From the NCBI GenBank assembly GCA_015233675.1, contig JADFXH010000001.1, positions 209,138-273,137 of the forward strand: a stretch of 64,000 bases of DNA, read 5' to 3'. This stretch comes from Candidatus Omnitrophota bacterium (GTDB taxonomy: Bacteria > Omnitrophota > Gorgyraeia > Zapsychrales > Fredricksoniimonadaceae). Positions 2,925-35,766 of the stretch are shown here, one piece after another (within the stretch, counting starts at the first letter, position 1; every line of letters begins with the position of its first letter). Below the pieces are notes generated by a model, which made no database searches, was not told the DNA's origin, and saw only the letters and a list, made by a program, of their open reading frames with translations. Made by a program: the position numbers and the translations under genes.

Positions 2925-2957
2925 CCCCGACTTTTCTTAAGATGATTGAAGTCGGGG
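2925..2957. repeat. 9-bp stem hairpin (ccccgactt / aagtcgggg) between the partial tRNA copy and tRNA-Gln
   Basis: Inverted repeat read directly. No U-run follows on either strand. Confidence 0.5.
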
Positions 2958-3040
2958 TCGGCCCCCCGCCCTATAAAGTCCTCCTATTCGTCGGACTTTA
3001 TAAACAGGGCTCCATTCTCGTCCTTCCCTGCATCTTAAAA

Positions 3041-3111
3041 TTGCCCAGTCAGGACTCGAACCTGAACAACGAGATCCAAATTCTCGGGTGCTACCATTAC
3101 ACCACCGGGCA
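3041..3111 (-). tRNA. tRNA-Gln (anticodon UUG)
   Basis: Reverse complement folds as a cloverleaf: 7-bp acceptor stem TGCCCGG/CTGGGCA, D-loop AATGGTA, anticodon stem CGAGA/TCTCG with loop ATTTGGA (anticodon TTG), T-arm TCAGG-TTCGAGT-CCTGA, discriminator A. CCA is not encoded. Confidence 0.85.
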
Positions 3112-3117
3112 GAGAAA

Positions 3118-3975
3118 CTATAGTGTACTAACCACAAACGCTTGAGTATAACGCCTGTCGAATTTCGCCCGGAGGCTTAAAGCGTGTTTTTGTGACTCGG
3201 CCAAAGCAAAAATCGAAGGACCACTGCCGGAGAAACAGACCCCTGCAGCTCCAGCGTCGAGCAATTTTCTCTTTAAATAAACAAAATCAGGCCTTAACGA
3301 CAAAATAGCAGGCTCCAGGTCATTAGACAAAGATCCTGCCAGTCGCACCAAATCCCCTTTTCTTAAAAAGGGAAGCAGAATATTAACATTATCCTTTTTA
3401 TTTGTCAAATTTAATTTAAGACGGGTAAAAACATCTGCCGTGTACATTTTAACCCGAGGAGTCACAAGCAGATGCCATAATTTAGTCTTGATATCCAATT
3501 GTCTTATAAGCTCTCCCCTTCCCGTACCCAACGCATAAGAAGTGTCATATAAAAAAAAGGTCACATCACTCCCTATGCGGGAGGCATAGCCAGCTAATTC
3601 TTGAGTCCCCAAACCCAATTGCCACAAACGGTTTAAACCTGATAAAACAGCAGCCGCATTGCTGGAACCCCCGGCAAGCCCCGCTGCTACAGGTATATTT
3701 TTTATAATATTTATATCTAACCCTTCTGAAATAGAAAAATCTTGACGCAAGAGAGCTGCAGCCTTAAAAACTAAATTCTTTGAAGACAACGGCACATGCG
3801 GATGGGCACAACGGATGCTTATTTTGTCACTTTTATTGCGCGTCAAAGTAATCGTGTCAGCCAGGCTGATCCGCTCAAATACGGTCCTAAGTTCATGAAA
3901 ACCGTCAGGACGCTTGCCCAAAACATCGAGAACCAGGTTTAATTTAGCCGGTGATTGAAGTGTGAGGCGATCCAT
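3118..3975 (-). CDS. ispE: 4-diphosphocytidyl-2-C-methyl-D-erythritol kinase
   Basis: GHMP kinase motif PVAAGLAGGSSNAAA. N-terminus LNLVLDVLGKRPDGFHEL is typical of IspE. Confidence 0.88.
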   Translation of the reverse strand: MDRLTLQSPAKLNLVLDVLGKRPDGFHELRTVFERISLADTITLTRNKSDKISIRCAHPHVPLSSKNLVFKAAALLRQDFSISEGLDINIIKNIPVAAGLAGGSSNAAAVLSGLNRLWQLGLGTQELAGYASRIGSDVTFFLYDTSYALGTGRGELIRQLDIKTKLWHLLVTPRVKMYTADVFTRLKLNLTNKKDNVNILLPFLRKGDLVRLAGSLSNDLEPAILSLRPDFVYLKRKLLDAGAAGVCFSGSGPSIFALAESQKHALSLRAKFDRRYTQAFVVSTL

Positions 3976-17135: not shown

Positions 17136-17965
17136 AATAGTGTCAGTTCTCCCTAACTGTATATTTATTAAATATTTATGGATTAATTGCCTTCCTTGGA
17201 CGACCCAGCCTGCGTTTTTTTGGTAGAATTGCTTCACGCTGTTTGCGAAAACTCTCTGACATATACTCACCGTTTTTTTCAAGGGTTTTTCGCACGGATT
17301 TTAGATGATCTCCATCGAGACGGCGACTCATCATTCCCTGGTACGCCAAACACCTCGCTGGTTCATCTGATCCTAATAGCTGGAACGCCGGATTCTTATT
17401 GCGATCGATCAATCTTGAATTTGCAGGATGAGCATTCAACCTGTAGCTCGAAAAGAGATAATCCCCTATATTGTTAACCATCATCGCTCGAAGAGGGTTC
17501 TGCTCAATATATTGCATGGCTGTAAAAAGATATTCATCATCACTTACTAAGGAAGAACTAAATCTCCCTTGCCATACATGCCCACTGCTTTTATATTTAA
17601 AGTTATACCAGCGATTATACGCCACAGTCAAGCTCTGCATGATTTTGCTGACCGTCCCCCACTCGCTTACCCGCAATAGAAGATGGACATGGTTTGTCAT
17701 CAAACAAAACGCATATAATTGAAACTTATATTTTTTTTTATAATGATAAAGGCAACGAAGATAATGCCGCTGATCAGCTGACTCTAAAAATATTGCCTGT
17801 CGATTATTCCCCCGGTTGATGATGTGATAAATTGCCCCTGGATAATGCAACCTATGATCTCGTCCCATAAACGCTCCTGCATTTTGCTATTCGCAGGGGA
17901 CGAATATAGTGAATTTAACATTAACTTATTGTACTTCAATAGGTTGGGGAGAACTGACACCTATT
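17136..17965. mobile_element. small IS200/RAYT-like element: Y1 transposase gene bounded by ~20-bp inverted repeats
   Basis: Left IR aatagTGTCAGTTCTCCCtaac (17136-17157). The reverse complement of 17943-17965 is aatagGTGTCAGTTCTCCCcaac. The element sits 15 nt upstream of the dsbD start codon. Confidence 0.7.
17176..17868 (-). CDS. IS200/IS605-family Y1 (HUH) transposase, REP-associated tyrosine transposase-like
   Basis: Motif GAIYHIINRGNNRQAIF and HUH motif HVHLL, with a downstream Tyr region. Confidence 0.8.
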   Translation of the reverse strand: MGRDHRLHYPGAIYHIINRGNNRQAIFLESADQRHYLRCLYHYKKKYKFQLYAFCLMTNHVHLLLRVSEWGTVSKIMQSLTVAYNRWYNFKYKSSGHVWQGRFSSSLVSDDEYLFTAMQYIEQNPLRAMMVNNIGDYLFSSYRLNAHPANSRLIDRNKNPAFQLLGSDEPARCLAYQGMMSRRLDGDHLKSVRKTLEKNGEYMSESFRKQREAILPKKRRLGRPRKAINP

Positions 17966-17980
17966 AGACACCTATTAAAA

Positions 17981-19606
17981 TTATTTATCAAAAACAGTAA
18001 GGGTAAATTGCAGAGGAACGTAACCCATACTGCTTTGAGTTGATTGAGGCTGGCCGATGCTCAATCGTTGCGCGTCAAATCCATGATTAACCAAGAACTC
18101 ATGGACCAATCGAGCTCTGTCCTGGGCCAGAGCACTTAAGGCCTCTTGGTCCGGCGGAGCATTTTCAATTAATTGGCGCTTAATTTCCTCGTCGAATTTT
18201 GTGTCTTTATACCTGCCAACCCCTTGCTTATACTTCTTAGCCAAAGCCCATAAGCCGCGGATACCATAACGGCGTTGATACAACAATTGATAAACCTTGC
18301 TATCTGAACGTCTGGATTCTTTCCTTAATTTTTCATAATCCTTTGTAAATACATCTGCCTGTATCGCCTTCCAGTCCACCTGCGGGTCATAACTCCCGTT
18401 AATTTCAAGACGAAGCTTGGGATGTTCAGCAATGCCCTTAATCAATGTGACTAATTTTTGCTGCTGGTTGACAGTTATAACAGACTTGCCAGGGGCAAAA
18501 CGGACATACCCTAATTCATCAGTACTACTATCCGAACCACCTAAGGCGGAGGCTAGAAATGAAAACGGTTTAGTAACAAGATTAAGAAAGAAATTACGAA
18601 TAACCTGGAAAATTAAATGAGTATATTCAAATTTTGGATCACTCATATCACCGGATGCAGGCAATGCAATTTTGATCTTTCCCTGTGGATCTTCCAGAAG
18701 AGCAACAGCAAGGCCAAACGGCAAATGCAAAGCATCCTTGCTTTCTACGCTATTGCCAAATTCAAATCGCTGGATCAAAACCCTATGGCTGGCAACAAGC
18801 TTATTAGCTCCTATGCGATACTCCATTGTCAAATCTAACTTGCCGCTCCTTAATTCACGCCCCGTATACTTGCCAACATAAGGCGTCAGAATTCCTAATG
18901 CGTAACCATTGAGACTAAATGTTGTTTCCATTTCCAATGGGTGGGATAAGAGTTTAATAATCGTTTCCATCGTAATCTTTCCCTTATCATCTAAATTAGC
19001 CTGAAATTTGATCTTAGCCTGGTCCTCTGGATTTGTTGTAACATTAGTAACATGTAATTCCATGGCCCCCAATATCGTTGAAAAATCAGGTTTAATGGTT
19101 TTATCGGTAAAATGGACCTGCCCTTGGCGCAAAACAATACTATCAATGATAACCTCCGGCAACAAAACAGGTTTGTTGATGCCGGCTGTTGATTGTTTGG
19201 GGCCTTTTGCTGGTTGAGCAGCTGCCTGGGGAACAAGTTCTAAAAGATTGATCTTATTACCGGGCAGTAACTCAACGTTGACCCGAAGCCCATCCAGCTC
19301 AAAAGTTTCCACGTGATAAATTTTCTTAAACAAATCAACAGGGCTCATTTTCACAAATAATTTGTCAAAGCCGGCCATAACCTGATTTGTATTGTCCAAA
19401 ATTTCAAAATTATTAAGCGTCAGTTGCAGTAAAAAAGGGTTAAGGCCTACTGAATGTATATGGACAGGGTGCTTAAGAAGCTTTGTCCCCTGGTTTGAAA
19501 TTGCCCAGGTAAGGACAAGCGGGATTACAATAAAACCTGTAATGGTATAAAACAGGAATATCCCTAAAATTGTTTTTAAAAAAATCCGTAAAATTTTTTG
19601 TAACAT
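17981..19606 (-). CDS. hypothetical membrane-anchored protein (AsmA/DUF748-like?)
   Basis: N-terminal TM helix and a large periplasmic region. Family assignment is uncertain. Confidence 0.4.
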   Translation of the reverse strand: MLQKILRIFLKTILGIFLFYTITGFIVIPLVLTWAISNQGTKLLKHPVHIHSVGLNPFLLQLTLNNFEILDNTNQVMAGFDKLFVKMSPVDLFKKIYHVETFELDGLRVNVELLPGNKINLLELVPQAAAQPAKGPKQSTAGINKPVLLPEVIIDSIVLRQGQVHFTDKTIKPDFSTILGAMELHVTNVTTNPEDQAKIKFQANLDDKGKITMETIIKLLSHPLEMETTFSLNGYALGILTPYVGKYTGRELRSGKLDLTMEYRIGANKLVASHRVLIQRFEFGNSVESKDALHLPFGLAVALLEDPQGKIKIALPASGDMSDPKFEYTHLIFQVIRNFFLNLVTKPFSFLASALGGSDSSTDELGYVRFAPGKSVITVNQQQKLVTLIKGIAEHPKLRLEINGSYDPQVDWKAIQADVFTKDYEKLRKESRRSDSKVYQLLYQRRYGIRGLWALAKKYKQGVGRYKDTKFDEEIKRQLIENAPPDQEALSALAQDRARLVHEFLVNHGFDAQRLSIGQPQSTQSSMGYVPLQFTLTVFDK

Positions 19607-19682
19607 CTTAAGTCCCCGTATATTCTGCCCTTCAATTAGACCTAAAATATTTTATATCTATTACATTTAAATGCATAGGATT

Positions 19683-20252
19683 TTATTTATTATGCCCTAA
19701 AATCCATAAAGGTTTTAACAAAAACTGAATACTCACCCCTCCCCAGTACCGGGAATCCCAGCTGTTTTTCACAAAATCACTCAATAAGATATATTTTCCT
19801 TTATTTAATAGCCCTGCTTTCTGGTCATAAAAGAGCTTCAATGCCCTTCCGGATGAATCTTTGCCCATTATAGGGTATGAGTGCCCATTTATTTTTAAAG
19901 ACCCGTTTTCCACAATAAAGTGGTCGCCGGGTATTCCTTGGACCACTTTAAGGACCAACACTGTACCGGTCTCGCAACTACCCTGTGCCAAATAAGCCCG
20001 GTCGATGCCATACTGAGAGATTTCCCTGGTCAAACAAGTGGCTGCGTAATCTCCACGTTTAGGAGCTCCTTCGATTTTCATATAGATGCCGTATGGTAAA
20101 GAGTGAGTAAAGATATTAAAATAAAAAATATGAGTAAAATCTAAAATAATTAATGCGGATAAAATCAAAAGCAGCCATTGCATCGTTCTAGTCATAGCGG
20201 GAAAAATAATTAAAGAAGCCTGCACTGTAAATCCAAGCTTAGGTATTCGCAC
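19683..20252 (-). CDS. S26-family signal peptidase, TraF-like
   Basis: Box D LKVVQGIPGDHF (Lys general base), box E SDFVKNSWDSRYWG, and a candidate Ser nucleophile in HSLPYG. Only 189 aa. Confidence 0.7.
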   Translation of the reverse strand: MRIPKLGFTVQASLIIFPAMTRTMQWLLLILSALIILDFTHIFYFNIFTHSLPYGIYMKIEGAPKRGDYAATCLTREISQYGIDRAYLAQGSCETGTVLVLKVVQGIPGDHFIVENGSLKINGHSYPIMGKDSSGRALKLFYDQKAGLLNKGKYILLSDFVKNSWDSRYWGGVSIQFLLKPLWILGHNK

Positions 20253-20955
20253 AAATTCCGATATAATTTACTGAATTGGAAATATAGGCCCTTCGGCAGT
20301 CACCATGGGTATACGCGGACACCACCCGGTTAGTAATATGAGCCTCAATATACTGGTCATTTTCGCAACCGCCCTTGCCGGAACTGTCATAAGTTTCGGC
20401 TTGGGAAGAAGATATGAGCCACTGGCATTGAGCATCTGTGTATCCGGAGGGCAAAGGAATAGTCCCCCTGTCCTCTATGGTGCCGGTGACAACAAATACC
20501 GGCGGCGTTGTCGGCCCACCGGGAACGCTTATGGTACTCGTCACTGTAGTTCCAAAGACATTGGTTAAAGGCAATTTGGACACGACAATATTCTGGGCCC
20601 CGTCATTCACAGTCGTGGAAACTGTCAAGAAGGCCGATGTCGAGCTCATGGTGTAGTTGTGATTAAATGGATTTAAAGCATTCCAACTTGACGGGAGATA
20701 ACCTGATGATTCAAGGTCATTAGGCGGAGTATTTATTGAGCTTGGCCAGCCAGCTCCTTTTTGCAAATAATAACTGCGGGCCGCATCCTGAATGTTTTGA
20801 ATTTCCAGTGCTGTCTTTGTTCCTGCCTTTTCCAGGTAAGCACGGTACATCGAAGGAACGGCAAAAGTTAACAACACTGTCATAATAATTACAACTATGG
20901 TTAACTCCAATAAACTGAAGGCCTTTTTATTATTTATACAAATATAGAAGGTCAT
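20239..20955 (-). CDS. type IV pilin-like / pseudopilin (minor pilin candidate)
   Basis: Class III signal peptide KKA|FSLLELTIVVIIM with Glu at +5. 246 aa. Confidence 0.7.
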   Translation of the reverse strand: MTFYICINNKKAFSLLELTIVVIIMTVLLTFAVPSMYRAYLEKAGTKTALEIQNIQDAARSYYLQKGAGWPSSINTPPNDLESSGYLPSSWNALNPFNHNYTMSSTSAFLTVSTTVNDGAQNIVVSKLPLTNVFGTTVTSTISVPGGPTTPPVFVVTGTIEDRGTIPLPSGYTDAQCQWLISSSQAETYDSSGKGGCENDQYIEAHITNRVVSAYTHGDCRRAYISNSVNYIGICANT

Positions 20956-21352
20956 AAATAAGTCTTCCGGAAAATTCATTCGGCATGCTTCTTGTGATGC
21001 TGATCTGGTCCCCTGTTGCTCCGGGTGTAACTATTAAAAAGCTCCCCTCATTGGGGTCTATTAAAATCCCTTTGGGAATTGTCGTTGAGACAGTGAACAT
21101 ATTATTCTTAAACGCAAGCTGATAGCTATATCCAAACGGATTGCTTTTATCCGCCTGTGTCATATACGTATCCCCTAATGATGAATTATAGTAATCCATC
21201 GCCGCTTCTGCGATTGAGCCCATTTCCCTGACTGTTGCCTGAAACCTGGCACGATCAATGAATTTTGCGCCATTACTGATAATCGTAGTTAATAAAACTC
21301 CGATGATAACCATGACAAGCGTCAACTCCAGCAACGTAAAGGCATTTTTCAT
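20930..21352 (-). CDS. type IV pilin-like / pseudopilin
   Basis: Prepilin N-terminus MKNA|FTLLELTLVMVIIGVL. Confidence 0.75.
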   Translation of the reverse strand: MKNAFTLLELTLVMVIIGVLLTTIISNGAKFIDRARFQATVREMGSIAEAAMDYYNSSLGDTYMTQADKSNPFGYSYQLAFKNNMFTVSTTIPKGILIDPNEGSFLIVTPGATGDQISITRSMPNEFSGRLIYDLLYLYK

Positions 21353-21807
21353 TGCAAGGTTGTTGTCCATGTCTGGCTTGATGCCGTATAACTTGGCGGA
21401 AGTGCCGATATTTTAGTTAATGCTGTTGTTAATTTTGCAGCGGGTATAGCCGGCACTGCCGTTAACCCGATATCAAGCATTTGTGAATTGTTGGCATCAA
21501 CGTTAACGGTATAATCCCCGTTCCATGGGTTGGTTGTTATCGCAGTAAATTGCGCGGGCAAATACCCGGCGGCCAACTTGGCAAAAGTTATACCCGTATA
21601 AACACCCCCGTTATCGCTGGCCCACTCAACACTTGCAGTCTGGATGGCCTTGATACTAGCAATAGCATTTGCGATACGGCTGCTATCGGTTGCGGTTTGC
21701 CCTAACGGTACGACAGCCAGTAAAATAACACTGATGATCACCAGCACGACCACCATTTCGATAACAGTAAAACCTTTCCTGATTTTTAATTTTCTAATCA
21801 TGTCCAT
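21349..21807 (-). CDS. type IV pilin-like / pseudopilin (GspG/PilA-like)
   Basis: Prepilin N-terminus MIRKLKIRKG|FTVIEMVVVLVII. Confidence 0.8.
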   Translation of the reverse strand: MDMIRKLKIRKGFTVIEMVVVLVIISVILLAVVPLGQTATDSSRIANAIASIKAIQTASVEWASDNGGVYTGITFAKLAAGYLPAQFTAITTNPWNGDYTVNVDANNSQMLDIGLTAVPAIPAAKLTTALTKISALPPSYTASSQTWTTTLQ

Positions 21808-21833: not shown

Positions 21834-23033
21834 TTATTTGAATACCCCTTCACCCATCCGGTTTATATTTGTATAGATCGGCAAAATAAAAGAACACAGG
21901 ATCGTAAGCAAAAATAACGCAGCCACAACTAGCAATGAAGGCTCGATGATCGCGATAAGCGCCGCAATTGATTCCTTGCTCTTAATATCGTAATACTTAT
22001 AAATACGTTCCAGATATTGCGGTAAAAAACCACTTACCTGGCCTTTACTCAAATTCTGGCAAACAAACGGCGGGAAGAATGGATCTTGTTTAAAGGCATC
22101 ACCTAAAGAGATCCCTTTAAATATCCTCTCCCGGATTAAAATCAGTCTTCCTGTAATGCAGGTATTGCTGGCTTGATGGATATTAGTGATTGTTTGAACA
22201 ATGTTCACGCCGCTTTTTTGATACACATATAAATTCAAGAACACATGGGACAACTCGATATTTTTAATCAGGTCTCCCACCAACGGTATACTCAATATAA
22301 CTTCCATCAACCTTTCACTATAATTATGCCAAAGGTGTTTTATCAGGAAGACTGCCGTCACTAAACATGAAATAACCACCCACCAGTATTCTTTTATAAA
22401 ACCGGCGTATCCGACCAGAATCATAGCGGATAAACTGTTTCCGGAACCCGACGGCAAAAAAGCTTTCAGCAAGGGGACCAGTTTGATGGAGATAAATATC
22501 GATAATCCTGTCAATAAACAAAAAATCACTCCCGGATAGATCAACGCCCTGGTAATTTTCTTTTGATTTTCATCCTTGAAATTATAATATTGAGCTAAAA
22601 GGTCTGATAATTCCGGGATGTTACCGGTCTTCTCTGCCGCGCTTAGCGATACACAGACAATCTTGGAAAAAATCTTTGTATTTTCAAATGACTCTTCCAG
22701 AGACCGCCCGTCATTAATAAAATTACATATTTTTTTAAGGGCTTCTTTTAAAACAGGATTTGAGCTTGTTTCATTTAATGTGTTAATGGCTTCATTGACT
22801 GATAAACCGCATTTTTGCATATCGGCGAAATCCTTGAAAAATACGGACAGCACCGATGATGATAATCTGCGGTTTTGAAATATACTCTTTATAAACGCCG
22901 GATAATCAGGAGTAATATTCAGAATTTCAAGGCCGTAAACCAAGGCCTGATTCTTAGCATCTTCCAGACTCCCGTCGAAGGTTTGAGTAATTTCAGATCT
23001 CTTGGCCGTCAAAGCTTCAATTTTCCAATACAT
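21834..23033 (-). CDS. type II secretion / type IV pilus platform protein (GspF/PilC family)
   Basis: Two T2SS-F repeats, three TM segments and ~400-aa length. Confidence 0.85.
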   Translation of the reverse strand: MYWKIEALTAKRSEITQTFDGSLEDAKNQALVYGLEILNITPDYPAFIKSIFQNRRLSSSVLSVFFKDFADMQKCGLSVNEAINTLNETSSNPVLKEALKKICNFINDGRSLEESFENTKIFSKIVCVSLSAAEKTGNIPELSDLLAQYYNFKDENQKKITRALIYPGVIFCLLTGLSIFISIKLVPLLKAFLPSGSGNSLSAMILVGYAGFIKEYWWVVISCLVTAVFLIKHLWHNYSERLMEVILSIPLVGDLIKNIELSHVFLNLYVYQKSGVNIVQTITNIHQASNTCITGRLILIRERIFKGISLGDAFKQDPFFPPFVCQNLSKGQVSGFLPQYLERIYKYYDIKSKESIAALIAIIEPSLLVVAALFLLTILCSFILPIYTNINRMGEGVFK

Positions 23034-23037
23034 AAAT

Positions 23038-24669
23038 TCATCCTAAAACCCTGACGGCCTCTTCAATTGAGGTATCGCCCCTTAATATAAGCGACTTCAT
23101 GTCATCCATCATCGTTTTATACGTCCCTCGTCTTCGTAACAGGGAATAGATTTCCCCTAAAGCATTTTTAGCAATAAGTTCTTTAATTTCAGGATCAATA
23201 AACAATACTTCAGCTACTACTGTTCTTCCCAAATAACCATTTCGGCATCGTTCGCAGCCATTGGCCCGATATAGCATTTGAATTCCTTGGCTTAAATACT
23301 TTGCTTTATAGGGCTCAAAGGTGTCTTGCGCCCCTGCAAACGAACTCTTGCAAAAGTGACAAAGTTTTCTAACCAGCCTTTGAGAAACTACGGCCACCAA
23401 ACAACTGGAGATGTTTACTGCATCCACGCCCAAATCTTTTAACCTTAAAATTGCTGAAATCGGGTCGTTGGTATGTAAGGTTGAGAAAATTTGAAGCCCG
23501 GTATTGGCTGCGCGTAAAGATTCATCCGCTGTCTCTTTGTCCCGGATCTCTCCGATCAAAATCACGTCAGGGTCTTGCCGCAGGAATGCTCGGATAGCCA
23601 TGCCGAATGTCAGATTTTGTGACTGATCAACCTGAACTTGAGACATTAACGAATGGGTGATCTCAACGGGATCCTCAATGGTAAGAATTTTCTTAGAAAT
23701 TGATTTAATCTGGTTTAATACCGCTGACAGGGTCGTTGATTTTCCGCTGCCGGTGGGGCCGGTGACTAAAATCAAACCGTGAGGGACAATGATGGCCTGA
23801 TTGATTAATTTATGGTTATGCCCTGAATAACCCAGACTTTCCAAGGGGATGGATGCGCGGGCCTTGTCCAGAAGACGTAAAACAATGCCCGGTCCATGAA
23901 TAGTCGGGATTTGTGAAAACCTGACATCAACCGTCCTTGCCATTTCTTTAAATTCATGATCAAATCTACCATCCTGAATAGTGTAATCACAGGGATTGCC
24001 CTTACATTTAGTCAAAATTATATTAGCCAGCTTAGAGATATATTCCGGCTTAAGACAGTTGATAGGGGTTAATAATCCATCAATTCTAAACCGGATGTCA
24101 GTGGTATTACCGGTAGGCTCTATATGAATATCCGTGCTGCGCGTGATAATCGCCAGATTGATAATGGCATTAAACCACAAAGCTAATGAATCAATTCCTT
24201 TTAATTTTAATATCTCAATTTCAGAAAGTAATTTTTGCCTATCCTTCTCCAAAATTATCAAATCCAAAGCATTCCTGATATCATTCTCTGTGCCTATGTA
24301 AAAATTCACTCCCTTATTACCAAAATTATTCTTAAGAAAGTCTGTAACTTCAACGTTATCTATAAACGAAACAACAAATGACGGGATAGGCCCGTTTTTT
24401 AACGGAAAAATCTGGTGCTCACAGAAATAACCCAACCCCACCCGTTCAATTGCCTCATAGTCAGGCATATAATCATTTTTAAAAAACTTCCAGCCGATCT
24501 GTTTTGAAAGACACACCGCTAATTCTTCATCATTGATAAATCCATGATGCTTTAAAATAGACCCTAAGCGATTTTTAGGATTTGTTCTCTTATACTCAAG
24601 GCAGTGGTCAAGCTCTTCTTGAGTTAAAAGTTTACCTTCAATTAATAATTCACCGATCTTTGCTAACAT
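23038..24669 (-). CDS. type II/IV secretion ATPase (GspE/PilB family)
   Basis: N-terminal GSPII_E_N-like domain, Walker A GPTGSGKST, and a C-terminal CxxC...CxxC zinc motif. Confidence 0.9.
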   Translation of the reverse strand: MLAKIGELLIEGKLLTQEELDHCLEYKRTNPKNRLGSILKHHGFINDEELAVCLSKQIGWKFFKNDYMPDYEAIERVGLGYFCEHQIFPLKNGPIPSFVVSFIDNVEVTDFLKNNFGNKGVNFYIGTENDIRNALDLIILEKDRQKLLSEIEILKLKGIDSLALWFNAIINLAIITRSTDIHIEPTGNTTDIRFRIDGLLTPINCLKPEYISKLANIILTKCKGNPCDYTIQDGRFDHEFKEMARTVDVRFSQIPTIHGPGIVLRLLDKARASIPLESLGYSGHNHKLINQAIIVPHGLILVTGPTGSGKSTTLSAVLNQIKSISKKILTIEDPVEITHSLMSQVQVDQSQNLTFGMAIRAFLRQDPDVILIGEIRDKETADESLRAANTGLQIFSTLHTNDPISAILRLKDLGVDAVNISSCLVAVVSQRLVRKLCHFCKSSFAGAQDTFEPYKAKYLSQGIQMLYRANGCERCRNGYLGRTVVAEVLFIDPEIKELIAKNALGEIYSLLRRRGTYKTMMDDMKSLILRGDTSIEEAVRVLG

Positions 24670-24672
24670 GCT

Positions 24673-25323
24673 TTATTCCGGTTTATAGTCGATGGTCTTA
24701 GTCAATTCCTGCGGTGCGCTAAAATGCAGGGTCACACCGGTGTCGGAAATAGACAAAACTTGAATGCTATCAGTTGGACTGGATTTCTCTTTGACCTGAA
24801 AACTAACGCCTGCGATGGAGAGGATCGCCTCTTTCTTGACATTATCCCCTCCAATATACTCTACTTTAATTTCAGGCATATTTTTTTGGCCATCGACGGA
24901 TGGATCTTTAAAGTTTCCCCTATTCTCACTTTTTAATTTATTGATCTGGGCAAGAGCTTTTTCCTGTTCAAGCTCTAGATTGGTTTGTTCAAGTTTATTC
25001 TTTAAATATTTCGTCTGTTTTTGCTCTTGGCGATCACGATCAAGCTGTTGTTGGATCGCGGCATCATCTTCTTTGGGAGTGCCTGACTCAACTCCTCCTT
25101 TAAGCCCTGTTTCTGCGCTTGGATTTACAGCAACAGGCCTTGCTGAAATAACTTTCATTGACTCCATTTCAGATGCGGCCCCAAGACTTTCCGGTGCCGG
25201 TAAATTTGTCCTCGGGCTGAGTCTCCAAAGGGTCACAATAATTGCAAAAATGCCAAACAAAAAAGGCACTAATACTTTCTTTGAAAATAACTTTTTAAAG
25301 TCCATAGATTTCCCCTTTAACAA
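24673..25323 (-). CDS. hypothetical bitopic protein, PilP/GspC-like candidate
   Basis: N-terminal TM, a coiled coil and a C-terminal beta-rich domain. Assigned only from its position inside the pilus operon. Confidence 0.4.
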   Translation of the reverse strand: MLKGKSMDFKKLFSKKVLVPFLFGIFAIIVTLWRLSPRTNLPAPESLGAASEMESMKVISARPVAVNPSAETGLKGGVESGTPKEDDAAIQQQLDRDRQEQKQTKYLKNKLEQTNLELEQEKALAQINKLKSENRGNFKDPSVDGQKNMPEIKVEYIGGDNVKKEAILSIAGVSFQVKEKSSPTDSIQVLSISDTGVTLHFSAPQELTKTIDYKPE

Positions 25324-25789
25324 TTAAATTATTTTTATCTTTGCTTATTTCTGAGACCATAAAATCAGTGTTCTTCTCTAATAAATGAATATCGTCTAAC
25401 ACGGCCCCCATATCCGTCTCTTTTGAAAACTTATCTACCACGATCTTAATTTTTAATCCCCTGACTCCCTCATACTCCGTATCCACATAATGATCTGAAA
25501 TGTCATCCGCATCCTTAAACCCCTCTAACTGGACATTCATGTCGGTCCCGCTGCAGCTTTCAAGCATCCTGATCTGGCTCATGACCAAACCATATTCAAT
25601 CGACAGAAGCACAGGCCCGCGTTTAACTAAAGATTCCCGATCATTGATTTTTTGTTTCATATCCAGATTGTTTGCCTGCATCTGTACGGCTTCATATCTC
25701 AGTTTATCTACCCGTGCTTTAGCAGACATCCCAAAATTAATCAAAACCATCGATGCAATGAATGAAGTAAAAATGATGGTTTTATTCAT
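25295..25789 (-). CDS. PilO-like pilus assembly protein
   Basis: N-terminal TM, a coiled coil and a periplasmic domain, positioned between pilM/N and the ATPase. Confidence 0.5.
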   Translation of the reverse strand: MNKTIIFTSFIASMVLINFGMSAKARVDKLRYEAVQMQANNLDMKQKINDRESLVKRGPVLLSIEYGLVMSQIRMLESCSGTDMNVQLEGFKDADDISDHYVDTEYEGVRGLKIKIVVDKFSKETDMGAVLDDIHLLEKNTDFMVSEISKDKNNLIVKGEIYGL

Positions 25790-26973
25790 AGGGTTACTCT
25801 CAAATGTTTTCCCGGCAGGTTATTCACAAAGACATCTTTAATATCCGCTGTTTTTAAAATTCTTACCTTAGGAATGGGATCGAATGCTTTCCCATTTTCA
25901 GAAGACAATGAGACTTCTAAGTCCCATTTATCCGATCTAATAAATTTGAATGAATCCACTTCGTAGCTCGAAGGGACCAAATCAAGGACAGCAAGATAGG
26001 ATACCCCATAATTAAGGGATTTATGCTTTCTCAAGTCTTCCCTGTACGTCTCTCTATCTAATGATTTTAGCTTTTCATCCAATCGTTCATTGTCCTGTCT
26101 GGCTAAAGCACGTTGATTGCTCACTAGCCCTAACTCGAGCTTATTAAACAAAAAATAAAATAACCCTACTGCCGCCACACATAAGGAAATCCCTGTCGTC
26201 ATGGCATTCTTTTTTAATTCAATTTCCCTGCGTTTTTTAATAATTTCTTCAGGCAATCTGAACTTGACTGGGGTATTTGTTTCTTTTAAACCTTCTAATG
26301 CAGGGCAGGCAACATCTAAGCATTCCACCGGCAGGTTTTCTTTATTTTTAGAGATCTCAGAGGCTAATACATGATTATTGACCAATATTATAAAATCTGT
26401 ACTCTTCCTGCTTAAATACTCTTCGTTTTTCTTAAAAAAATCGATCTGGGAGCGCTTGATTTCAGGTAAAATATCTTCACCATTGTTTACTATAACTCTT
26501 GTCCGGCTGAATTTTAAACCATCAAAGACAGTTAATAATCTCTCCCTCCCCCAGTCATCCACAAAGACTACAGTTTTATTCAGATAGATTTTTTTATTAA
26601 CCAGAGTATTACGCAAAGCAATGCCATAGGGAATAAAAGACCTGACTTTTGAGGGTGGTATAAACGAGTAAACTTCTCTCACCTTTTGTTCTTTGATCCC
26701 CATGACCTGAAAAAGATTATTATCTATCCTTTCATCCTGGATAATATAGGCTTCATGCTGGTAAAGTTCCTTGAACTTACGCACCAGGATACTGTCTTTC
26801 TTCTCTACCGGACTTTCCACAGCGGCCGCGATGAGGACATCAACATCAACCACACAGAGATTCGCTTCTTCGACAGACCCTAAAATATCTTTATAGTCAT
26901 TGCCTTTATCTATACGATGCACACTGGTCCCGTCGCTTACCATGATCTCGTTGTTAAATAATAAATAGTTCAT
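25786..26973 (-). CDS. PilM-PilN fusion-like assembly protein
   Basis: ~240-aa cytoplasmic actin-like region, then a TM segment (ISLCVAAVGLFYFLF) and a coiled coil as in PilN. Confidence 0.55.
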   Translation of the reverse strand: MNYLLFNNEIMVSDGTSVHRIDKGNDYKDILGSVEEANLCVVDVDVLIAAAVESPVEKKDSILVRKFKELYQHEAYIIQDERIDNNLFQVMGIKEQKVREVYSFIPPSKVRSFIPYGIALRNTLVNKKIYLNKTVVFVDDWGRERLLTVFDGLKFSRTRVIVNNGEDILPEIKRSQIDFFKKNEEYLSRKSTDFIILVNNHVLASEISKNKENLPVECLDVACPALEGLKETNTPVKFRLPEEIIKKRREIELKKNAMTTGISLCVAAVGLFYFLFNKLELGLVSNQRALARQDNERLDEKLKSLDRETYREDLRKHKSLNYGVSYLAVLDLVPSSYEVDSFKFIRSDKWDLEVSLSSENGKAFDPIPKVRILKTADIKDVFVNNLPGKHLRVTL

Positions 26974-26987
26974 TCTTTAGTCTTTGT

Positions 26988-28835
26988 TTAAATATTCCTG
27001 ATGACGCTTTTAGGAGTAATAATGATGACCAATTCTGTCTTTTTGCTTGATTTAACTTTATACTCAAAGGCATTTCCTAAAAATGGTATTTTATCCAGGT
27101 AAGGAATCCCTTCGGTTGAATTATTCCTGATGGAGCTTATAAGTCCTCCCAAGATCAAGGTTTTTTCGGGCTCGACTCCAACATTCGTCGTAATGCTTTT
27201 CGTTGACACCTGCGGCTCCTGGATGGTCAACCCGTTACCCACCGCTACATTAGTCATAGAATCAAGGGTGTTTAGCGCCGCAGAAATATTCAACACGGTT
27301 TTATTTTCTTCGATCTTTGCTTCCAATCTCATTGTTAAACCATCCGACACTTGAGATGTCGTAACATTGGATTGCGTAATGTTATTCCCTATCGTCTGAC
27401 CTGTCCCGGAAATATAAGGGACACTGGTCACCTCCTGTATAACGCATGGGAACATGTTAGATACCGTAATCGATGGCCTGCTGACGACATTTACATCCCC
27501 CATTGAATCAAGCGCTTTAAGAACCATTGACACCCCGCCGTTGGTCGCCCCACTGGCAGAATCCGGACCGGCGGCTGATAAAGTCAGTAATTGTCCGCTT
27601 AAGAATCCGGCCGAAGAAAAGTTTGTTGCCGCCGTGATATTGTTGAGACCCTTGAGGCTTTTGGCTATGGTATTCCAATCAATTCCTGTTTCGTGGTTCC
27701 TTGATAAGGTCACTTCTATGATCTGGATCTCGAAGCTTTGCTGTCTGCCTAAATTCTCATTAATGGTTGAGACCAACTCCCCTACCTTATCCAGGACCGC
27801 GGGCTTATCAGTCACAACGATTGAGCCGCTGACCTTATTAAGAGAATAGCTGCCGGTATTGGGCGTTATTATTGATTTAACGTTGTTTTCTAAATCAGCC
27901 CATAAGGAAAGTTTGGGCGAGGTATTTTCGTAATAGATCTTTGTCCCTACCTTAATATCCTGGTTTTGCTGGTTATTTGTTGAAATGCTATTGTTATTAT
28001 TACTATCCACGAAGGATGCATTGGAGGTCTCATCAGTAAATGATTGGTCCACCGCCGGCATGTTTATATTAAAAATCCTGGTTTCTGTTTCTGTAATGAT
28101 TAAATCCTCCCGGGAGACTTTAAATCCATATCCAAACTTATATAAAAGACTTTTTAATGCCCTCCACACCTCAATATTTTCAAGGTTGATGGATGTTTTT
28201 TGAGAATCAATGTCCGGGGTTGTGATAATGTTGTATCGCGTAACCTGAGAAATTGTTGAAAGGTAAATTTTAAGCGGCAGGTCATTGCCTTTGAGGGTAA
28301 TCTTAAGGTTTAACTCCGGCGGCAAATCCGGGGACGATTTTCTACTAACCTGATCCTCCACATTTATTGCTTTCATTAACGCTGGTTTTGCTGTTTGTCT
28401 TATTGCCCCTTTCTTTTCAATGACGCTTTCGGACAGAATATCCATTTTGGCGGCTATTGTTTTATCTTCATTTTTGTCATCAGAAGCCGCTATCCTGTGT
28501 ATAATAAATTTGGTATAAAAATCATCATTAGCTACAAATCGCAGCACGTAACTTTCTCCGGAAATACCAGTTACTGTCATTTCAGCGGCTTCTAAATCCG
28601 TAGGCATTAATTCCAGCATATTCGGTTTATTGTTATTTCTTTGGACAACATAGGTGTCTGCTCCGAAACCTCTGATAACACCATTTATGGACTCGGGGAA
28701 AATGACGGTTGTGACATGATCTTTTTTAACATGCACGTATATTTCTTTACCGTCGTATACAAAATCTTTAATTTCGGCGCGCGCGATTGGTAAAATGCTT
28801 GAGCAAAAAATAATGCTTAATAATAGCTTTTTCAT
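26988..28835 (-). CDS. secretin (PilQ/GspD family)
   Basis: Signal peptide and the conserved C-terminal secretin domain GIPYLDKIPFLGNAF...TELVIIITPKSV. Confidence 0.88.
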   Translation of the reverse strand: MKKLLLSIIFCSSILPIARAEIKDFVYDGKEIYVHVKKDHVTTVIFPESINGVIRGFGADTYVVQRNNNKPNMLELMPTDLEAAEMTVTGISGESYVLRFVANDDFYTKFIIHRIAASDDKNEDKTIAAKMDILSESVIEKKGAIRQTAKPALMKAINVEDQVSRKSSPDLPPELNLKITLKGNDLPLKIYLSTISQVTRYNIITTPDIDSQKTSINLENIEVWRALKSLLYKFGYGFKVSREDLIITETETRIFNINMPAVDQSFTDETSNASFVDSNNNNSISTNNQQNQDIKVGTKIYYENTSPKLSLWADLENNVKSIITPNTGSYSLNKVSGSIVVTDKPAVLDKVGELVSTINENLGRQQSFEIQIIEVTLSRNHETGIDWNTIAKSLKGLNNITAATNFSSAGFLSGQLLTLSAAGPDSASGATNGGVSMVLKALDSMGDVNVVSRPSITVSNMFPCVIQEVTSVPYISGTGQTIGNNITQSNVTTSQVSDGLTMRLEAKIEENKTVLNISAALNTLDSMTNVAVGNGLTIQEPQVSTKSITTNVGVEPEKTLILGGLISSIRNNSTEGIPYLDKIPFLGNAFEYKVKSSKKTELVIIITPKSVIRNI

Positions 28836-29068
28836 AATTTACCTCGTAAAATTAATTTGAGATTTGAAACATTAATAGTATCGCATAATTTTGATTATTT
28901 GTCAATATTTCTAGCAAATTAAACAATAATCATAACTTATTAATTACCAATATATTGCATGATTATTACAAATAAAAATAAAAAATAAATTTAATTGTTT
29001 GACGAAATAACAATATTTCTCACAACAACACGCTACCTCTATTTATCTCAAAGCATGCTTGACTGGTC

Positions 29069-29097
29069 AAAAAAAGCCAAATATACTATCGAATAGG
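29069..29097 (+). promoter_or_regulatory. sigma70-like promoter for the major pilin
   Basis: TTGACT, a 17-nt spacer, then TATACT, ~45 nt upstream of the pilin ATG. Confidence 0.4.
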
Positions 29098-29141
29098 ATG
29101 GATGAAACTAAAATCCGGAAGGGTTTTTGACAAATCGACAA

Positions 29142-29468
29142 ATGAATATAAAATTACGGAAAGCTCGCCAACATAACAATGGCTTCACGCTTTTAGAAAT
29201 TATCGTCGTTTTGATCATTATTGGCATATTAGTCGCCATTGCCGTGCCTAATATCTATGGCTGGATTGACCGTTCGGCCGCATCAGAGGGAAACTCTTCT
29301 TTGAGGCTCCTTTCTGATCAGATGGATGCATGCATGCTTACAACAAAGACTGTTGATCAATGCGCACAAAATCTTACTGCGGGAGGGACTGGTTTAGGGC
29401 CAAATGTTACTGTAGAAACTCAAGTTAGAGGAGGGAACTATACTATAGCCCAGTATGGGGGGCACTGA
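29142..29468 (+). CDS. type IV major pilin, N-terminal two-thirds (frame 1)
   Basis: Leader MNIKLRKARQHNNG|FTLLEIIVVLIIIGILVAIAVP. Terminates at TGA 29466 immediately after a G6 tract. Confidence 0.8.
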   Translation: MNIKLRKARQHNNGFTLLEIIVVLIIIGILVAIAVPNIYGWIDRSAASEGNSSLRLLSDQMDACMLTTKTVDQCAQNLTAGGTGLGPNVTVETQVRGGNYTIAQYGGH

Positions 29469-29718
29469 TCTTTCAAATAAATTTAAATATATTATCTATT
29501 CTTATACTAATAATAATACTCATGTAAGTCAATATGCTACACTTGCATTCTGGGACCTTGATGCTAACCCTCGACAAAATCTTTCAGACACGACGATCAA
29601 TTGTATAAATAGCGTAACAATAACAATGACCAACCAGTATGGGATGTTAGGAACGTGCAGCACATCGGTCGGAAAACGCATTCAAGCTGGCGATGGCATT
29701 TTCGCAGGGCTGTCTTAA
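29142..29718 (+). pseudogene. major pilin gene split by a +1 frameshift at a G6 homopolymer (29457-29462)
   Basis: ORF 29455..29718 encodes a pilin-like C-terminus (C-x18-C, then GKRIQAGDGIFAGLS). Deleting one G fuses both ORFs into a ~192-aa pilin. Confidence 0.65.
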
Positions 29719-29741
29719 AATGTTGGATATTACCGCTGTTT

Positions 29742-31121: not shown

Positions 31122-31823
31122 TCACGCATAATGCTTAAGCACTAAATTCCCTATGACCCTGACAGCTTCTTGAGGGCCCACGCTATCAACATTAATGATA
31201 AGATCGTAAAGTAAGGGGTCTGAAATATTTCTCTCAAAATATTTTTTAACATAACTACTTCTGTTGTGATCTTTCTTAATGACATACTCTTCGGCTTCTT
31301 TCTTGCTAACCTTTAAGTACTCCTGCATATGACTGATGCGCTTATCCAGCGAACTGATCAGACGGACATGCACTCCTCTGGGAACTTTAGCAGTGATTAT
31401 ACCGGCCCCCCAGTCAACTATGATGGAATAACCTAATTGGGCCAGGTGGAGAATCGTTTTGCTTGTTTCATGAACCAGTAAATGCCGCGAAGGATGCAAG
31501 CCGCAAATCTCTTCCATCATATCTTCAATTTCTGAAATTGTCGACTCTGATAAATAGGGAAGAACTGTCTCCGGCAAATCGTGCTCTTCAACAACCTTTT
31601 TTAAAAGCTCATTATCAAACACCGTCCATGGACACTCTTTCCGCCTTTCATGTTTTTGTAAATATTCACCTAAGCCCTTGGCAATGGTCAGGCCGTATGC
31701 CCCTGTCTCACGAGAAATAGTCACAAACGGCCTGCTTGTCTTGCGAGATTTCTCCGAGTCAGCTTTTAAAGATTTAAATTGGGAATTAATATAAGCAGAA
31801 TAAACGCCATTATGTTCTGTCAT
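31122..31823 (-). CDS. cytidylate kinase-like family protein
   Basis: Motif VTISRETGAYGLTIAKGLG is a P-loop variant typical of the CMK-like family. ~230 aa. Confidence 0.6.
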   Translation of the reverse strand: MTEHNGVYSAYINSQFKSLKADSEKSRKTSRPFVTISRETGAYGLTIAKGLGEYLQKHERRKECPWTVFDNELLKKVVEEHDLPETVLPYLSESTISEIEDMMEEICGLHPSRHLLVHETSKTILHLAQLGYSIIVDWGAGIITAKVPRGVHVRLISSLDKRISHMQEYLKVSKKEAEEYVIKKDHNRSSYVKKYFERNISDPLLYDLIINVDSVGPQEAVRVIGNLVLKHYA

Positions 31824-31898: not shown

Positions 31899-33482
31899 TT
31901 AAACCTCGGTTACGACAACCGCTTCCTTCGGAGATTTGATGACAGGAAAAAGCATGACCAGCGGCAGAAGTACTATAAACATAATCATAAGTACGATAGA
32001 AGTATCGTTATAGGCCATCATATCTGCCTGCCTGTTGACCATATGCTGGACCAAGGCCAGCATTTTTGGTTTTACGTCAACGCCGGCAACTCCTTGACGG
32101 ACAAAAAGCGCCTGAGCCTGATGATAAAATACCGTAAAATTCTTATTTAACAGGCTTATATGTTCTACTAAACATGCATGATGAACTTGTGACTGCCTCT
32201 CAATAACGGTCACGATCAGGGCATAACCAACATTCCCCCCTACCTGCTGGAACAAATTATAAATTCCTGAGGCTGAAGTCATCTCCTCCTTGGAGATCGA
32301 TGAAACAGCCACCGTTGTCAGGGTCACAAACATGAACGGCATGCCTAATCCCATCAAAATCAGGATTGGAATGATGCTCATGTCCGACGCACTTAAAGAC
32401 AAATGCGCCAGCTGCCAATAGGACAGGCTCACGACCACGATCCCCGTCACCATCATGGCCCTTGAATCTATAAAATTAAAAATCCTTCCTACCAGCGGAA
32501 GGACAAAAAACAGGGTCACGGCACGCGGCATCAGGATCAAGCCTGCTTGGAATGCCGGATAACCTAATAACTGCTGGGTAAATTGCGGTAAAATAAACGT
32601 CGTTCCGTACAGAGCAATCCCAAAGACCAATACAATAATAACACCCATCCTCAGCTGGATATTCTTTAACAGACGGAAATTCACCACAGGTTCGCTTTGT
32701 AAAAGTTCCCAAACCACCAAGGTCACCAATGACACAACCGTAACAATACTGAAAATTATGATCATCGGGGAGTCAAACCAGCTTTCCTGCTGGCCGCGCT
32801 CAAGGACCGTCTGTAAACCGGTCAGCCCCAAAGTTAAAAGAACGATACCCCCCCAGTCAATTTTCTTTATCCCCCGGCGAAGATACGCAGGGTCATGCAC
32901 ATAAAGCCATACCAAGAACATCCCCAATAAACTCACCGGTATATTGATATAAAAAATCCAAGGCCAGCCGTAATTGTCCGTCAGCCATCCACCTAACACC
33001 GGACCAAAAGCAGGGGCCAGCACAACCCCCATGGAAAAAATAGCCATCGCCATTCCCTGCTCTTTCTTGGGAAAACTCTCCCGCAAAATCGCTTGCGAAA
33101 TAGGTATTAAACTCCCTCCCCCGATACCTTGGATAATCCGATAAATAAGCATCGAGGTGAAATTGTGCGCTGTCGCGGCAAGGATGGAGCCAAATGTAAA
33201 AATAGCAAAGGAGGCTAGATAAAAATTCTTGCGGCCCACCAGAGTCACCCACCAGCCGGACATTGTCAACATGATGACGGCCGCGATACTGTAGGCTGTG
33301 GCCACCCATGTGATGGCCGAAAGGGTCTGGCCAAAATTGCCCATCATATACGGCAATGCAACATTAACCACGCTAATGTCCATGACCGCCATAAACGCGC
33401 CAAACATGACAGCCGTGGCAACCAGCCATTTACTGACACCATTAGCTGTTTCTTCTTGTATGGGGGATGAGGATTGGGCCAT
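31899..33482 (-). CDS. emrB: MFS drug efflux transporter, DHA2 (EmrB/QacA) family, 14 TMS
   Basis: 527 aa, 14 predicted TM segments, MFS motif GRKNFYL. Confidence 0.85.
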   Translation of the reverse strand: MAQSSSPIQEETANGVSKWLVATAVMFGAFMAVMDISVVNVALPYMMGNFGQTLSAITWVATAYSIAAVIMLTMSGWWVTLVGRKNFYLASFAIFTFGSILAATAHNFTSMLIYRIIQGIGGGSLIPISQAILRESFPKKEQGMAMAIFSMGVVLAPAFGPVLGGWLTDNYGWPWIFYINIPVSLLGMFLVWLYVHDPAYLRRGIKKIDWGGIVLLTLGLTGLQTVLERGQQESWFDSPMIIIFSIVTVVSLVTLVVWELLQSEPVVNFRLLKNIQLRMGVIIVLVFGIALYGTTFILPQFTQQLLGYPAFQAGLILMPRAVTLFFVLPLVGRIFNFIDSRAMMVTGIVVVSLSYWQLAHLSLSASDMSIIPILILMGLGMPFMFVTLTTVAVSSISKEEMTSASGIYNLFQQVGGNVGYALIVTVIERQSQVHHACLVEHISLLNKNFTVFYHQAQALFVRQGVAGVDVKPKMLALVQHMVNRQADMMAYNDTSIVLMIMFIVLLPLVMLFPVIKSPKEAVVVTEV

Positions 33483-34389: not shown

Positions 34390-35766
34390 TCATAAATGAA
34401 AACTTTCAATACTACCTATGGCCGAATAATAATTCATTCGCGCAATATGATATTGTGTCAAGGCTGCCGTATAAGATTCACGGGCCTCGGCTAATTTCGT
34501 TTGAGCTGTTATGACCTCTAAATTATTGCTTAAACCGGAAGCAAACTGATTGCGGGCCAGCGACACTTCCTCGGCTGCTAAAATCACTGTCTGCTCTGCC
34601 GCCAGCACCTGTTGTTTGCTGCTAGTCAGCGTCTTTAAAGCCAAGCGCACATCTTCCTCAACCTGAATTTGAGTGTCATCCCGGATCATTTCATTTTCCT
34701 GTTTCTTGCCGGCAGCCTCTTTGACTTCTCCGATAATGCGGCCGCCATCGAATACAGGCCATTTAACCTGCAGCCCTATCTCGCTGACCTCGCTTGTCTT
34801 CTTTGAAATATCTGTCCCCGCGCGGCCGATATCTCCCATTAATGCTACTTGCGGGAAATTTTGGTTTCTTGCCTCCTGAAGTTTGTACTTGGCATATTGC
34901 ACTTCCTGCCCGGTGATTTTAATTTCTATACGCTGGGCCTCAGCCGTGTCAATGGCATCTTCCAATGATAAAGCCGTTTCTTCAAAAAATTTCAGCGTAT
35001 CCGTAAGCTCCAGAGGATTTCCTAACGGAAAACTTGTAATACGTTTTAGCTGAAGATCCGCCCTGTCTAAATCTAACAGACCTTCCTGATACAGGAATTC
35101 TTCCTGGGCCAAACGGGTTTTAGCGCGTGTCACATCAATCCTGGCAGCAATCCCATCATCAAATTGGTGCTGGGCCAATGTCAAAATCTGTTGAGCCAAA
35201 GCTTTATCTTTTTCTATAGCTTTAAGACGTTCCTGCGCATTTAATACTGCCAAATAAGTCATAGCGGCCGTGAGGGTCACTTGCTGACGGGCTAAATCCT
35301 GCTCAAAATCAGCTATTCTTAGCTCGACACTGCCTGCCTGATGACGCGAAAGCGCGCTTAAATCAAAAACCCGCTGTACCAGCTGGGCCCTGGCATCAAA
35401 AGTTTTCAATGGCCCAAGGTTCCCCCCTCCGGGGAATCCCAATGAATCCAGATTTTCCCTAAAAACTTTCATTTGAGCGCCACCCAAGGATAGATTGGGT
35501 AAAAGCTGTGCGTCTGCTTGCTGTTTGCGGCCAGCGGCTTGACGTACTTGCTGACAAGCAACTCTTATGAGTAAGCTATTTTCCTGGGCCCTGGCCAAAA
35601 CTTGCGATAAATTTAGCTTAAAAGAGGATACAGCGTTCGAAATAATTTCAGAGCTAAAAGCTGATGGCCCATAACAGCTGGCCAGCAGGAATATAAAAAC
35701 AAAAAGAGAACTCCCTGCTTTGTTGTTATTTATTGTGTTTCGTTTTTTTGGATCCAAGTTTTTCAT
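34390..35766 (-). CDS. TolC-family outer membrane efflux protein
   Basis: Signal peptide and duplicated OEP repeats. First gene after marR in the operon. Confidence 0.8.
   Translation of the reverse strand: MKNLDPKKRNTINNNKAGSSLFVFIFLLASCYGPSAFSSEIISNAVSSFKLNLSQVLARAQENSLLIRVACQQVRQAAGRKQQADAQLLPNLSLGGAQMKVFRENLDSLGFPGGGNLGPLKTFDARAQLVQRVFDLSALSRHQAGSVELRIADFEQDLARQQVTLTAAMTYLAVLNAQERLKAIEKDKALAQQILTLAQHQFDDGIAARIDVTRAKTRLAQEEFLYQEGLLDLDRADLQLKRITSFPLGNPLELTDTLKFFEETALSLEDAIDTAEAQRIEIKITGQEVQYAKYKLQEARNQNFPQVALMGDIGRAGTDISKKTSEVSEIGLQVKWPVFDGGRIIGEVKEAAGKKQENEMIRDDTQIQVEEDVRLALKTLTSSKQQVLAAEQTVILAAEEVSLARNQFASGLSNNLEVITAQTKLAEARESYTAALTQYHIARMNYYSAIGSIESFHL

Follow-up and report, generated by a model that had tools for sequence, protein, structure and literature searches.

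A type IV pilin gene interrupted by a frameshift near a short G run in an Omnitrophota genome

The 64-kb stretch of Candidatus Omnitrophota DNA analysed here (the window) contains, on its plus strand, a type IV pilin gene that is interrupted by a change of reading frame. In frame 0, the gene runs from an ATG at 29142 to ...TAT GGG GGG CAC TGA, with the TGA at 29466-29468, so that its 5′ part (ORF1, 29142..29468, plus strand) consists of 108 codons and a stop. The +1 frame is closed by a TAG at 29446-29448 and then open from 29449 to a TAA at 29716-29718, with an ATG at 29455; the mechanical ORF call begins at this ATG (ORF2, 29455..29718), whereas the 3′ part of the gene proper (29464..29718, plus strand) consists of residues T108-S191 of the fused product and the TAA. 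The most likely site of the frameshift is a homopolymer of six G residues (29457..29462, plus strand) that encodes Gly-Gly in both frames. Direct reading of the sequence with one G removed (G6 to G5) gives TAT GGG GGC ACT GAT and a continuous ORF of 191 codons. A preliminary description of the locus had placed the TGA directly after the G run and had put the fused pilin at about 192 aa; the run, the stop and the fusion are as it described them, except that one codon (CAC, 3 nt) stands between the run and the stop, and the product is 191 aa long. As the tract varies in length, G5 and G8 yield one continuous ORF (a 191-aa or a 192-aa pilin, respectively), and both G6 and G7 yield a truncated product.

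The pilin-like character ascribed to ORF1 in the preliminary description was confirmed by matches of its N-terminus to PF07963 (N_methyl; E 4.9e-8, 32.7 bits against a cut-off of 21.2) and TIGR02532 (31.1 bits against a cut-off of 16.3). A class III signal peptide consists of a short basic leader ending in Gly, followed by Phe or Met, a Glu at mature position 5 and approximately 20 hydrophobic residues, and ORF1 encodes one in the form of the 14-aa leader MNIKLRKARQHNNG (29142-29183) followed by FTLLEIIVVLIIIGILVAIAVP, the mature N-terminus beginning with FTLLE and continuing as a hydrophobic alpha-1 helix. ORF1 also encodes a pair of cysteines (C64 at 29331-33 and C74 at 29361-63) and the first two predicted beta-strands. 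The start codon at 29142 agrees with the aligned N-termini of two homologues, P0012 and P0013, that are introduced below; the NCBI annotation of ORF1 is a 113-aa protein (MBF0570456.1; P0001) that starts from a TTG at 29127.

ORF2 was not found as an annotated protein in the public collections that were searched. A word-indexed search with the fused protein matched relatives of the N-terminal helix and the 113-aa product of ORF1, but nothing over ORF2. An exhaustive phmmer search of 1.84 billion representatives, for which the query was fused residues 45-191, detected two further proteins: P0012 (181 aa, E 2.4e-13), from a 1255-bp contig of IMG sample 3300050821, and P0013 (MBF0572034.1; 192 aa, E 4.9e-7). 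Both are intact single ORFs, and both align with query positions 4-146, across the junction of the two frames at query position 63/64. The three-way alignment of the pilin with P0012 and P0013 has 55 invariant columns, 23 of which are in the part encoded by ORF2; the invariant residues in and around this part include G107, S111, F114, Y116, W137, N142-R144-N146-L147-S148, C154, G167, G170, C172 and G185-F187-G189. Aligned by itself, ORF2 matches from end to end the last 81 residues of P0012 (62.8 bits, 43% identity) and the C-terminus of P0013 (40.8 bits), and according to our own Karlin-Altschul estimate (K approximately 1), a score of 62.8 bits corresponds to an E value of about 1e-6 against the whole library, which is still significant. 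When P0013 was compared with the window by tblastn, its residues 1-78 matched frame 0 (29142-29375) and its residues 102-182 matched the +1 frame (29461-29712), placing the frame switch between 29375 and 29461. A profile search with the three-sequence alignment detected no further members, and as judged by these searches the family is very small, with three members among about 15 billion public proteins.

The 3′ part of the gene carries most of the predicted beta-sheet, the conserved W137, an NPRxNLS motif, the sequence C154-x17-C172 and a GIFxG motif at the C-terminus. C154 (29602-04) and C172 (29656-58) are invariant in all three family members and constitute a candidate disulfide-bonded pair of the D-region; they had been described as Cys-x18-Cys, one residue too many. 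The proposal that ORF2 is the missing C-terminus of the pilin, which was to be abandoned if ORF2 failed to align with pilin C-termini in a homology search, fared better: ORF2 does align with them from end to end, and both intact homologues span the junction. These alignments show ORF1 and ORF2 to be parts of one gene for a predicted 191-aa type IV pilin. The possibility that they are two separate genes instead, such that ORF1 would encode a short but complete pilin (about 108 aa) and ORF2 would be either a chance ORF or the gene for a small protein of its own, might be entertained on the grounds that pilins of 112-113 aa occur among the weak matches (P0005, P0007), that NCBI annotates ORF1 as an ordinary protein and that the codon usage of ORF2 is ambiguous. 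However, ORF2 has neither a signal sequence nor a ribosome-binding site at a usable distance, ORF1 alone is without most of the predicted beta-sheet, and the alignment of ORF1 and ORF2 with the N- and C-terminal halves of two single-chain pilins effectively refutes two separate genes, leaving them a probability close to negligible.

The long open +1 frame after the stop of ORF1 is not evidence by itself, because in a densely packed window the next genes start there: alternative frames remain open for at least 80 codons past the gene stop in 27 of 126 cases in the 64-kb window. It is the homology and not the geometry that raises the observation of a split gene above chance. Two measures were set aside along the way. 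A null model of alternative frames open past the stop was dropped as a significance test, being confounded by operon packing, and a codon-usage/coding-potential score of ORF2 was not used as evidence; this score beats those of all other frames, yet 24% of stop-free spurious ORFs equal it.

The two frames can be joined by a 1-nt deletion solely within 29449-29463, and the G run accounts for 6 of these 15 positions. The 5′ limit of the frameshift is the TAG of the +1 frame (29446-48), and its 3′ limit is set at the ACT codon (29464-66) because T108 and D109 (29464-69) already align with the residues GTD of P0013. The frame change is located, then, within 29449-29463. Insertion of a single G into a G5 run would be the simplest event, and a loss of two bases from G8 would also account for the G6 run. 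Beyond the junction, ORF2 has no stop in 87 codons and no further indel, and it keeps 68% of the positions that are conserved between P0012 and P0013, compared with 52% for the in-frame globular part of ORF1. ORF2 is undecayed, and therefore the frameshift is recent, reversible or artefactual. An old pseudogene is unlikely, given that ORF2 is free of stops and extra indels and retains 68% of the conserved positions.

The AlphaFold model of the fused protein, computed with the three-sequence alignment as input (pLDDT 69, pTM 0.61), has a long alpha-1 helix (17-66), a second, short helix and a total of eight strands, of which ORF2 encodes six, and shows a type IV pilin fold for the predicted 191-aa product. 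Genes of the corresponding machinery, for a secretin, a PilB/GspE-type ATPase and a PilC/GspF-type platform protein, are divergently adjacent to the pilin gene. By its signal peptide, its fold and the machinery in its vicinity, the protein of this locus belongs to the type IV pilin superfamily. It differs from the type IV pilins PilA/PilE, FimA of Dichelobacter nodosus and PilV of Neisseria meningitidis (PF07963, TIGR02532) in that its globular domain has no sequence relatives beyond two proteins, in its extra N-proximal cysteine pair C64-C74 and in the interruption of its gene by a frameshift. The leader peptides of type IVa pilins are typically 5-7 aa long, in contrast to the leader of 14 aa found here.

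The type IV filament operon from which the pilin gene diverges is on the minus strand. Its first gene encodes a secretin of 615 aa (26988..28835) that matches PF00263 (E 1e-29) and PF07655 (Secretin_N_2), and for which the best NCBIfam match is of the MshL type, below the curated cut-off. Three genes for proteins of 395, 164 and 216 aa follow (24673..26973) that have no Pfam or NCBIfam match, yet are 48-72% identical in three related loci (L003, L004 and L005), with the exception of the 216-aa protein in L003, which is 31% identical in a partial match at a contig end. They presumably encode components of the assembly platform; lying between the secretin and ATPase genes, they are possibly very divergent PilM/N/O-like components. 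The assembly ATPase is of the PilB/GspE type (23038..24669; PF00437 E 4.6e-101, PF05157, NF053729). An MshE-type c-di-GMP-binding motif at its N-terminus (residues 4-57; NF053729, 41 bits against a cut-off of 38) suggests that filament assembly may be under c-di-GMP control. The operon continues with a PilC/GspF-type platform protein (21834..23033; PF00482) and three pilin-like genes for proteins of 152, 146 and 246 aa, each with a prepilin N-terminus (20239..21807; PF07963). In L004, counterparts of the 152-aa and 246-aa pilins are 44% and 40% identical, and the 146-aa pilin matches weakly (33%, E 1e-6). The last gene encodes an S26-family signal peptidase (19683..20252; PF10502 E 5.5e-12) with 67% identity in L004. 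For a type I (S26) peptidase to close a pilus operon, and to be kept in that position in L004, is unusual, the subunits needing a prepilin (A24) peptidase; no prepilin peptidase was found among the annotated ORFs of the window.

With MSHA-type or type II secretion-like operons, this operon shares the Secretin_N_2 domain and MshL best match of its secretin, the MshEN/c-di-GMP motif of its ATPase and the presence of several pilin-like genes after the platform gene. It differs from them in that the equivalog scores are all far below the NCBIfam cut-offs, in the three proteins without known family, in the terminal S26 peptidase and in the lack of a prepilin peptidase among the annotated ORFs of the window. 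Type IV pilus genes are widespread in Omnitrophota, so the system itself is expected (PMC10066038). Between the S26 peptidase gene and dsbD of this genome are an IS200-like Y1 transposase gene (17176-17868) and a gene with DUF748, AsmA and OmpA domains (17981-19606); the region 17176-19606 looks like an insertion in this genome because in L004 the DsbD gene (19303-21174) comes directly after the S26 gene (18815-19258).

Between the start of the secretin gene and the stop of a UDP-sugar dehydrogenase gene is a slot (28836..29741) that consists of the pilin gene and an AT-rich spacer of 306 bp (GC about 0.30). A consensus scan located the best promoter-like site upstream of the pilin gene, a sigma-70-like candidate on the plus strand, TTGACT-17 nt-TATACT (29059..29087; 10 of 12 consensus positions), about 55 nt upstream of the pilin ATG. 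The scan gave nine sites in the region, compared with 6.0 +/- 2.4 expected from shuffled sequences, so that the candidate is weak evidence of a promoter. An A7 run (29069-29075) lies in the spacer of this candidate, between TTGACT (29059-64) and TATACT (29082-87), and is probably meaningless, the window having 61 A/T runs of at least 7. A search for sigma-54 sites returned matches at chance level, none of them upstream of the pilin gene.

Relatives of the locus were collected by a secretin scan of one genome per GTDB species, which identified five relatives of the Omnitrophota clade with 70-78% identity, four of them (L001-L004) with loci that span the slot. The filament operon itself is conserved in the relatives, but the contents of the slot vary, and a synteny search for an orthologous intact pilin gene beside the secretin gene came back empty. 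In L001 (6057-10000) and L004 (6841-10000) the slot is occupied by an NRAMP-type transporter cassette that includes cupredoxin-like genes and porin-like genes, in L003 (1225-3979) by a gene for an 839-aa protein, and in L002 (9341-9979) by a gene that shares the strand of the pilin gene here and encodes a Cys-rich secreted protein of 146 aa; in none of the four is there a pilin. This comparison marks the interval between the dehydrogenase and secretin genes as a hot spot in which gene content varies within this Omnitrophota clade. With no pilin in the slot of four relatives, the pilin is a strain-specific occupant, and the label of major pilin given to it previously is not supported; nor is that label favoured by the three pilin-like genes within the operon itself, of which at least two are detectably conserved in L004. 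The broken pilin is probably an accessory subunit. In L002 (8051-9340), the UDP-sugar dehydrogenase gene is split into ORFs of 157 and 249 aa, a frameshift or an assembly break in a housekeeping gene.

Elsewhere in the window, a tRNA-Gln(TTG) gene (3041-3111, minus strand) is the sole RNA gene detected, and a 66-aa ORF (2937-3137, minus strand) is spurious because it overlaps this tRNA gene. Two probable toxin-antitoxin pairs are encoded on the minus strand, one consisting of a ParE-family toxin (60893-61213) and a small upstream ORF (61161-61394), the other of a PIN-domain toxin (61734-62135) and a small upstream ORF (62132-62356). No magnetosome genes were seen in the window.

A frameshifted pilin gene could in principle still give rise to a full-length product if the G6 template were recoded, either through transcriptional slippage or through a +1 shift of the ribosome, on GGG_GGG or else at CAC_UGA. 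A tRNA-Gly in the P site on GGG could re-pair perfectly one base downstream, and the in-frame stop is two codons further on, which makes recoding mechanistically plausible. A +1 frameshift of the prfB type has a conserved shift site, at which a slippery codon in the P site is combined with a slow codon in the A site, and a stimulator resembling a Shine-Dalgarno sequence about 3 nt upstream of it. The possibility of re-pairing on GGG_G is the only one of these elements present at the pilin locus; the prfB-type Shine-Dalgarno spacing is absent, the sequence AGGAGG (29429-29434) being more than 20 nt upstream of the shift site, and no stable local RNA structure was found (z-scores +0.24 and +1.40). 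A run of six G residues is too short for efficient transcriptional slippage. Moreover, P0012 and P0013 are uninterrupted ORFs, so a frameshift is not a feature of the family. Recoding is highly improbable, and even when it is combined with the reading of two separate genes, the pair is very unlikely.

The preliminary description considered the locus to have the classic architecture of a contingency locus. Neisseria pilC is an example of a homopolymer contingency locus. The poly-G/C tracts of surface-structure genes in Campylobacter are another (PMC6321876), and the pilin gene resembles such loci in that a G run is situated within the coding sequence of a surface filament component, at a point where gaining or losing 1 nt decides whether the product is full-length or truncated. 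In other respects the resemblance fails. The tract here is G6 as assembled (OFF) and would be G5 in the ON state, whereas known cases have tracts of 7 or more (usually 8-13); the PhasomeIt cut-off for phase-variable G/C tracts is also 7 or more, and even tracts at this cut-off may mutate at rates below 1e-5 (PMC6321876). Nor does the tract stand out from its background, since dozens of G runs in nearby housekeeping genes equal or exceed it in length: the 64 kb contain 19 G/C runs of at least 6, the coding strands of the 62 intact genes of the window include 48 G5 runs and 14 G6-G7 runs, and GGG is the commonest glycine codon, constituting 31% of glycine codons. The pilin locus thus shares with contingency loci the position of the tract, and lacks their tract length and their distinctness from the background. 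The reading as a classic contingency locus is not supported, and the tract is ordinary in comparison with the G5-G7 runs of the window.

Slipped-strand phase variation, in which the tract would toggle between G5 (ON) and G6 (OFF) at a useful rate and so switch an accessory pilus subunit, is unlikely for these reasons. The tract is neither longer nor rarer than the Gly-Gly runs of G that are the background of this genome, and two scans of metagenome contigs, one for the exact pattern and one for the protein pattern, found no other copies of the locus and no G5 or G7 variants. What speaks for it, besides the placement of the tract exactly where 1 nt decides between a full-length and a truncated pilin, is that a surface-filament subunit is typical of the gene classes that are phase-variable, that the undecayed state of ORF2 is consistent with frequent reversion and that the gene occupies a strain-variable slot.

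Alternatively, the extra G may be an artefact of sequencing or assembly, such that the organism has G5 (or G8) and an intact pilin of 191 or 192 aa, and one or more G residues were gained or lost in consensus calling. The source is a metagenome-assembled genome (MAG), homopolymers are the commonest sites of indel errors, and the preservation of ORF2 is perfect, no family-invariant residue being lost, exactly as expected of an intact gene; the divided dehydrogenase gene of L002, a related MAG, illustrates that breaks occur in such data. On the other hand, the 64-kb window is otherwise unbroken. No other split gene was found among its approximately 62 genes, the neighbouring ORF pairs that were checked having distinct complete domains or belonging to a known type of pair, even though the window also has many long A/T runs and, within intact genes, 14 other G/C runs of at least 6, including three of length 7. 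Examples of G/C runs in the window are those of 7 at 32848-32854, 43349-43355 and 53042-53048 and those of 6 at 31406-31411 and 35422-35427. The assembly is not generally error-ridden, and the length of the contig, 321,724 bp, implies good coverage. Related MAGs with neighbouring accession prefixes are from an Illumina HiSeq/metaSPAdes study (PMC7602337), which is linked to the window by accession proximity alone; if this is the source, its short reads would make consensus indels in homopolymers of 5-6 rare. An artefact is possible, with a chance well short of even.

The reading to which we assign about an even chance is a real and very recent spontaneous insertion of 1 bp at an ordinary short homopolymer, without any special switching. 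A G5 run (GGG GGC, encoding Gly-Gly) would have gained one G to become G6, bringing a stop into frame two codons later, and the consensus of the MAG would have captured a null allele, or a young pseudogene, for a pilin that is accessory and strain-specific, with no evolved switch. As assembled, the gene would specify a prepilin cut short at 108 aa, which retains the alpha-1 helix, two strands and the first disulfide pair in addition to its leader. The C-terminal disulfide loop and most of the beta-sheet are missing from this fragment, which is therefore expected neither to fold like a pilin nor to assemble like one, and the truncated product is probably non-functional. The extra G is probably real and not an error, although the lack of decay in ORF2 is predicted equally well by an artefact or a reversible switch. 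Most of the probability falls on the caveat of the preliminary description, in which a sequencing error or a fixed pseudogene was allowed for, with the amendment that a fixed old pseudogene is unlikely when ORF2 is undecayed.

The loss of this pilin subunit would be tolerable because the operon is intact and has pilin genes of its own, and because P0013 is probably a paralogue in the same genome. The accession numbers of P0013 (MBF0572034) and the ORF1 product (MBF0570456) are 1,578 apart, a closeness that, taken alone, makes it probable that P0013 is an intact paralogue encoded by the same MAG on a 13.7-kb contig. The locus resembles the ordinary frameshifted genes and young pseudogenes of bacterial genomes and MAGs, with a single-base indel at a short run, an intact frame downstream and a gene that is dispensable or redundant. 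It has no feature that distinguishes it from this class, to which it most plausibly belongs.

Biologically, it is commonplace for a MAG to show one frameshift at a short run of G. The significance would be greater if the G5/G6 tract served an uncultured (possibly magnetotactic) member of the Omnitrophota as a functioning phase switch of low rate, acting on a pilin that is accessory and horizontally variable, an interpretation that we regard as decidedly improbable. It would then be the first contingency-type locus described in this phylum, and cells would be able to alter the subunit composition of a type IV filament to which a role in attaching Omnitrophota to surfaces or host cells is attributed (PMC10066038); ORF2 would owe its preservation to frequent reversion rather than recency. 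As for annotation, the public record contains a 113-aa 'prepilin-type' protein (MBF0570456.1) from which the 3′ half of the gene is missing, and the locus is better described as one frameshifted gene for a 191-aa pilin. Together with its two homologues, the product defines a tiny pilin family that had gone unrecognised, with two cysteine pairs conserved among its three sequences.
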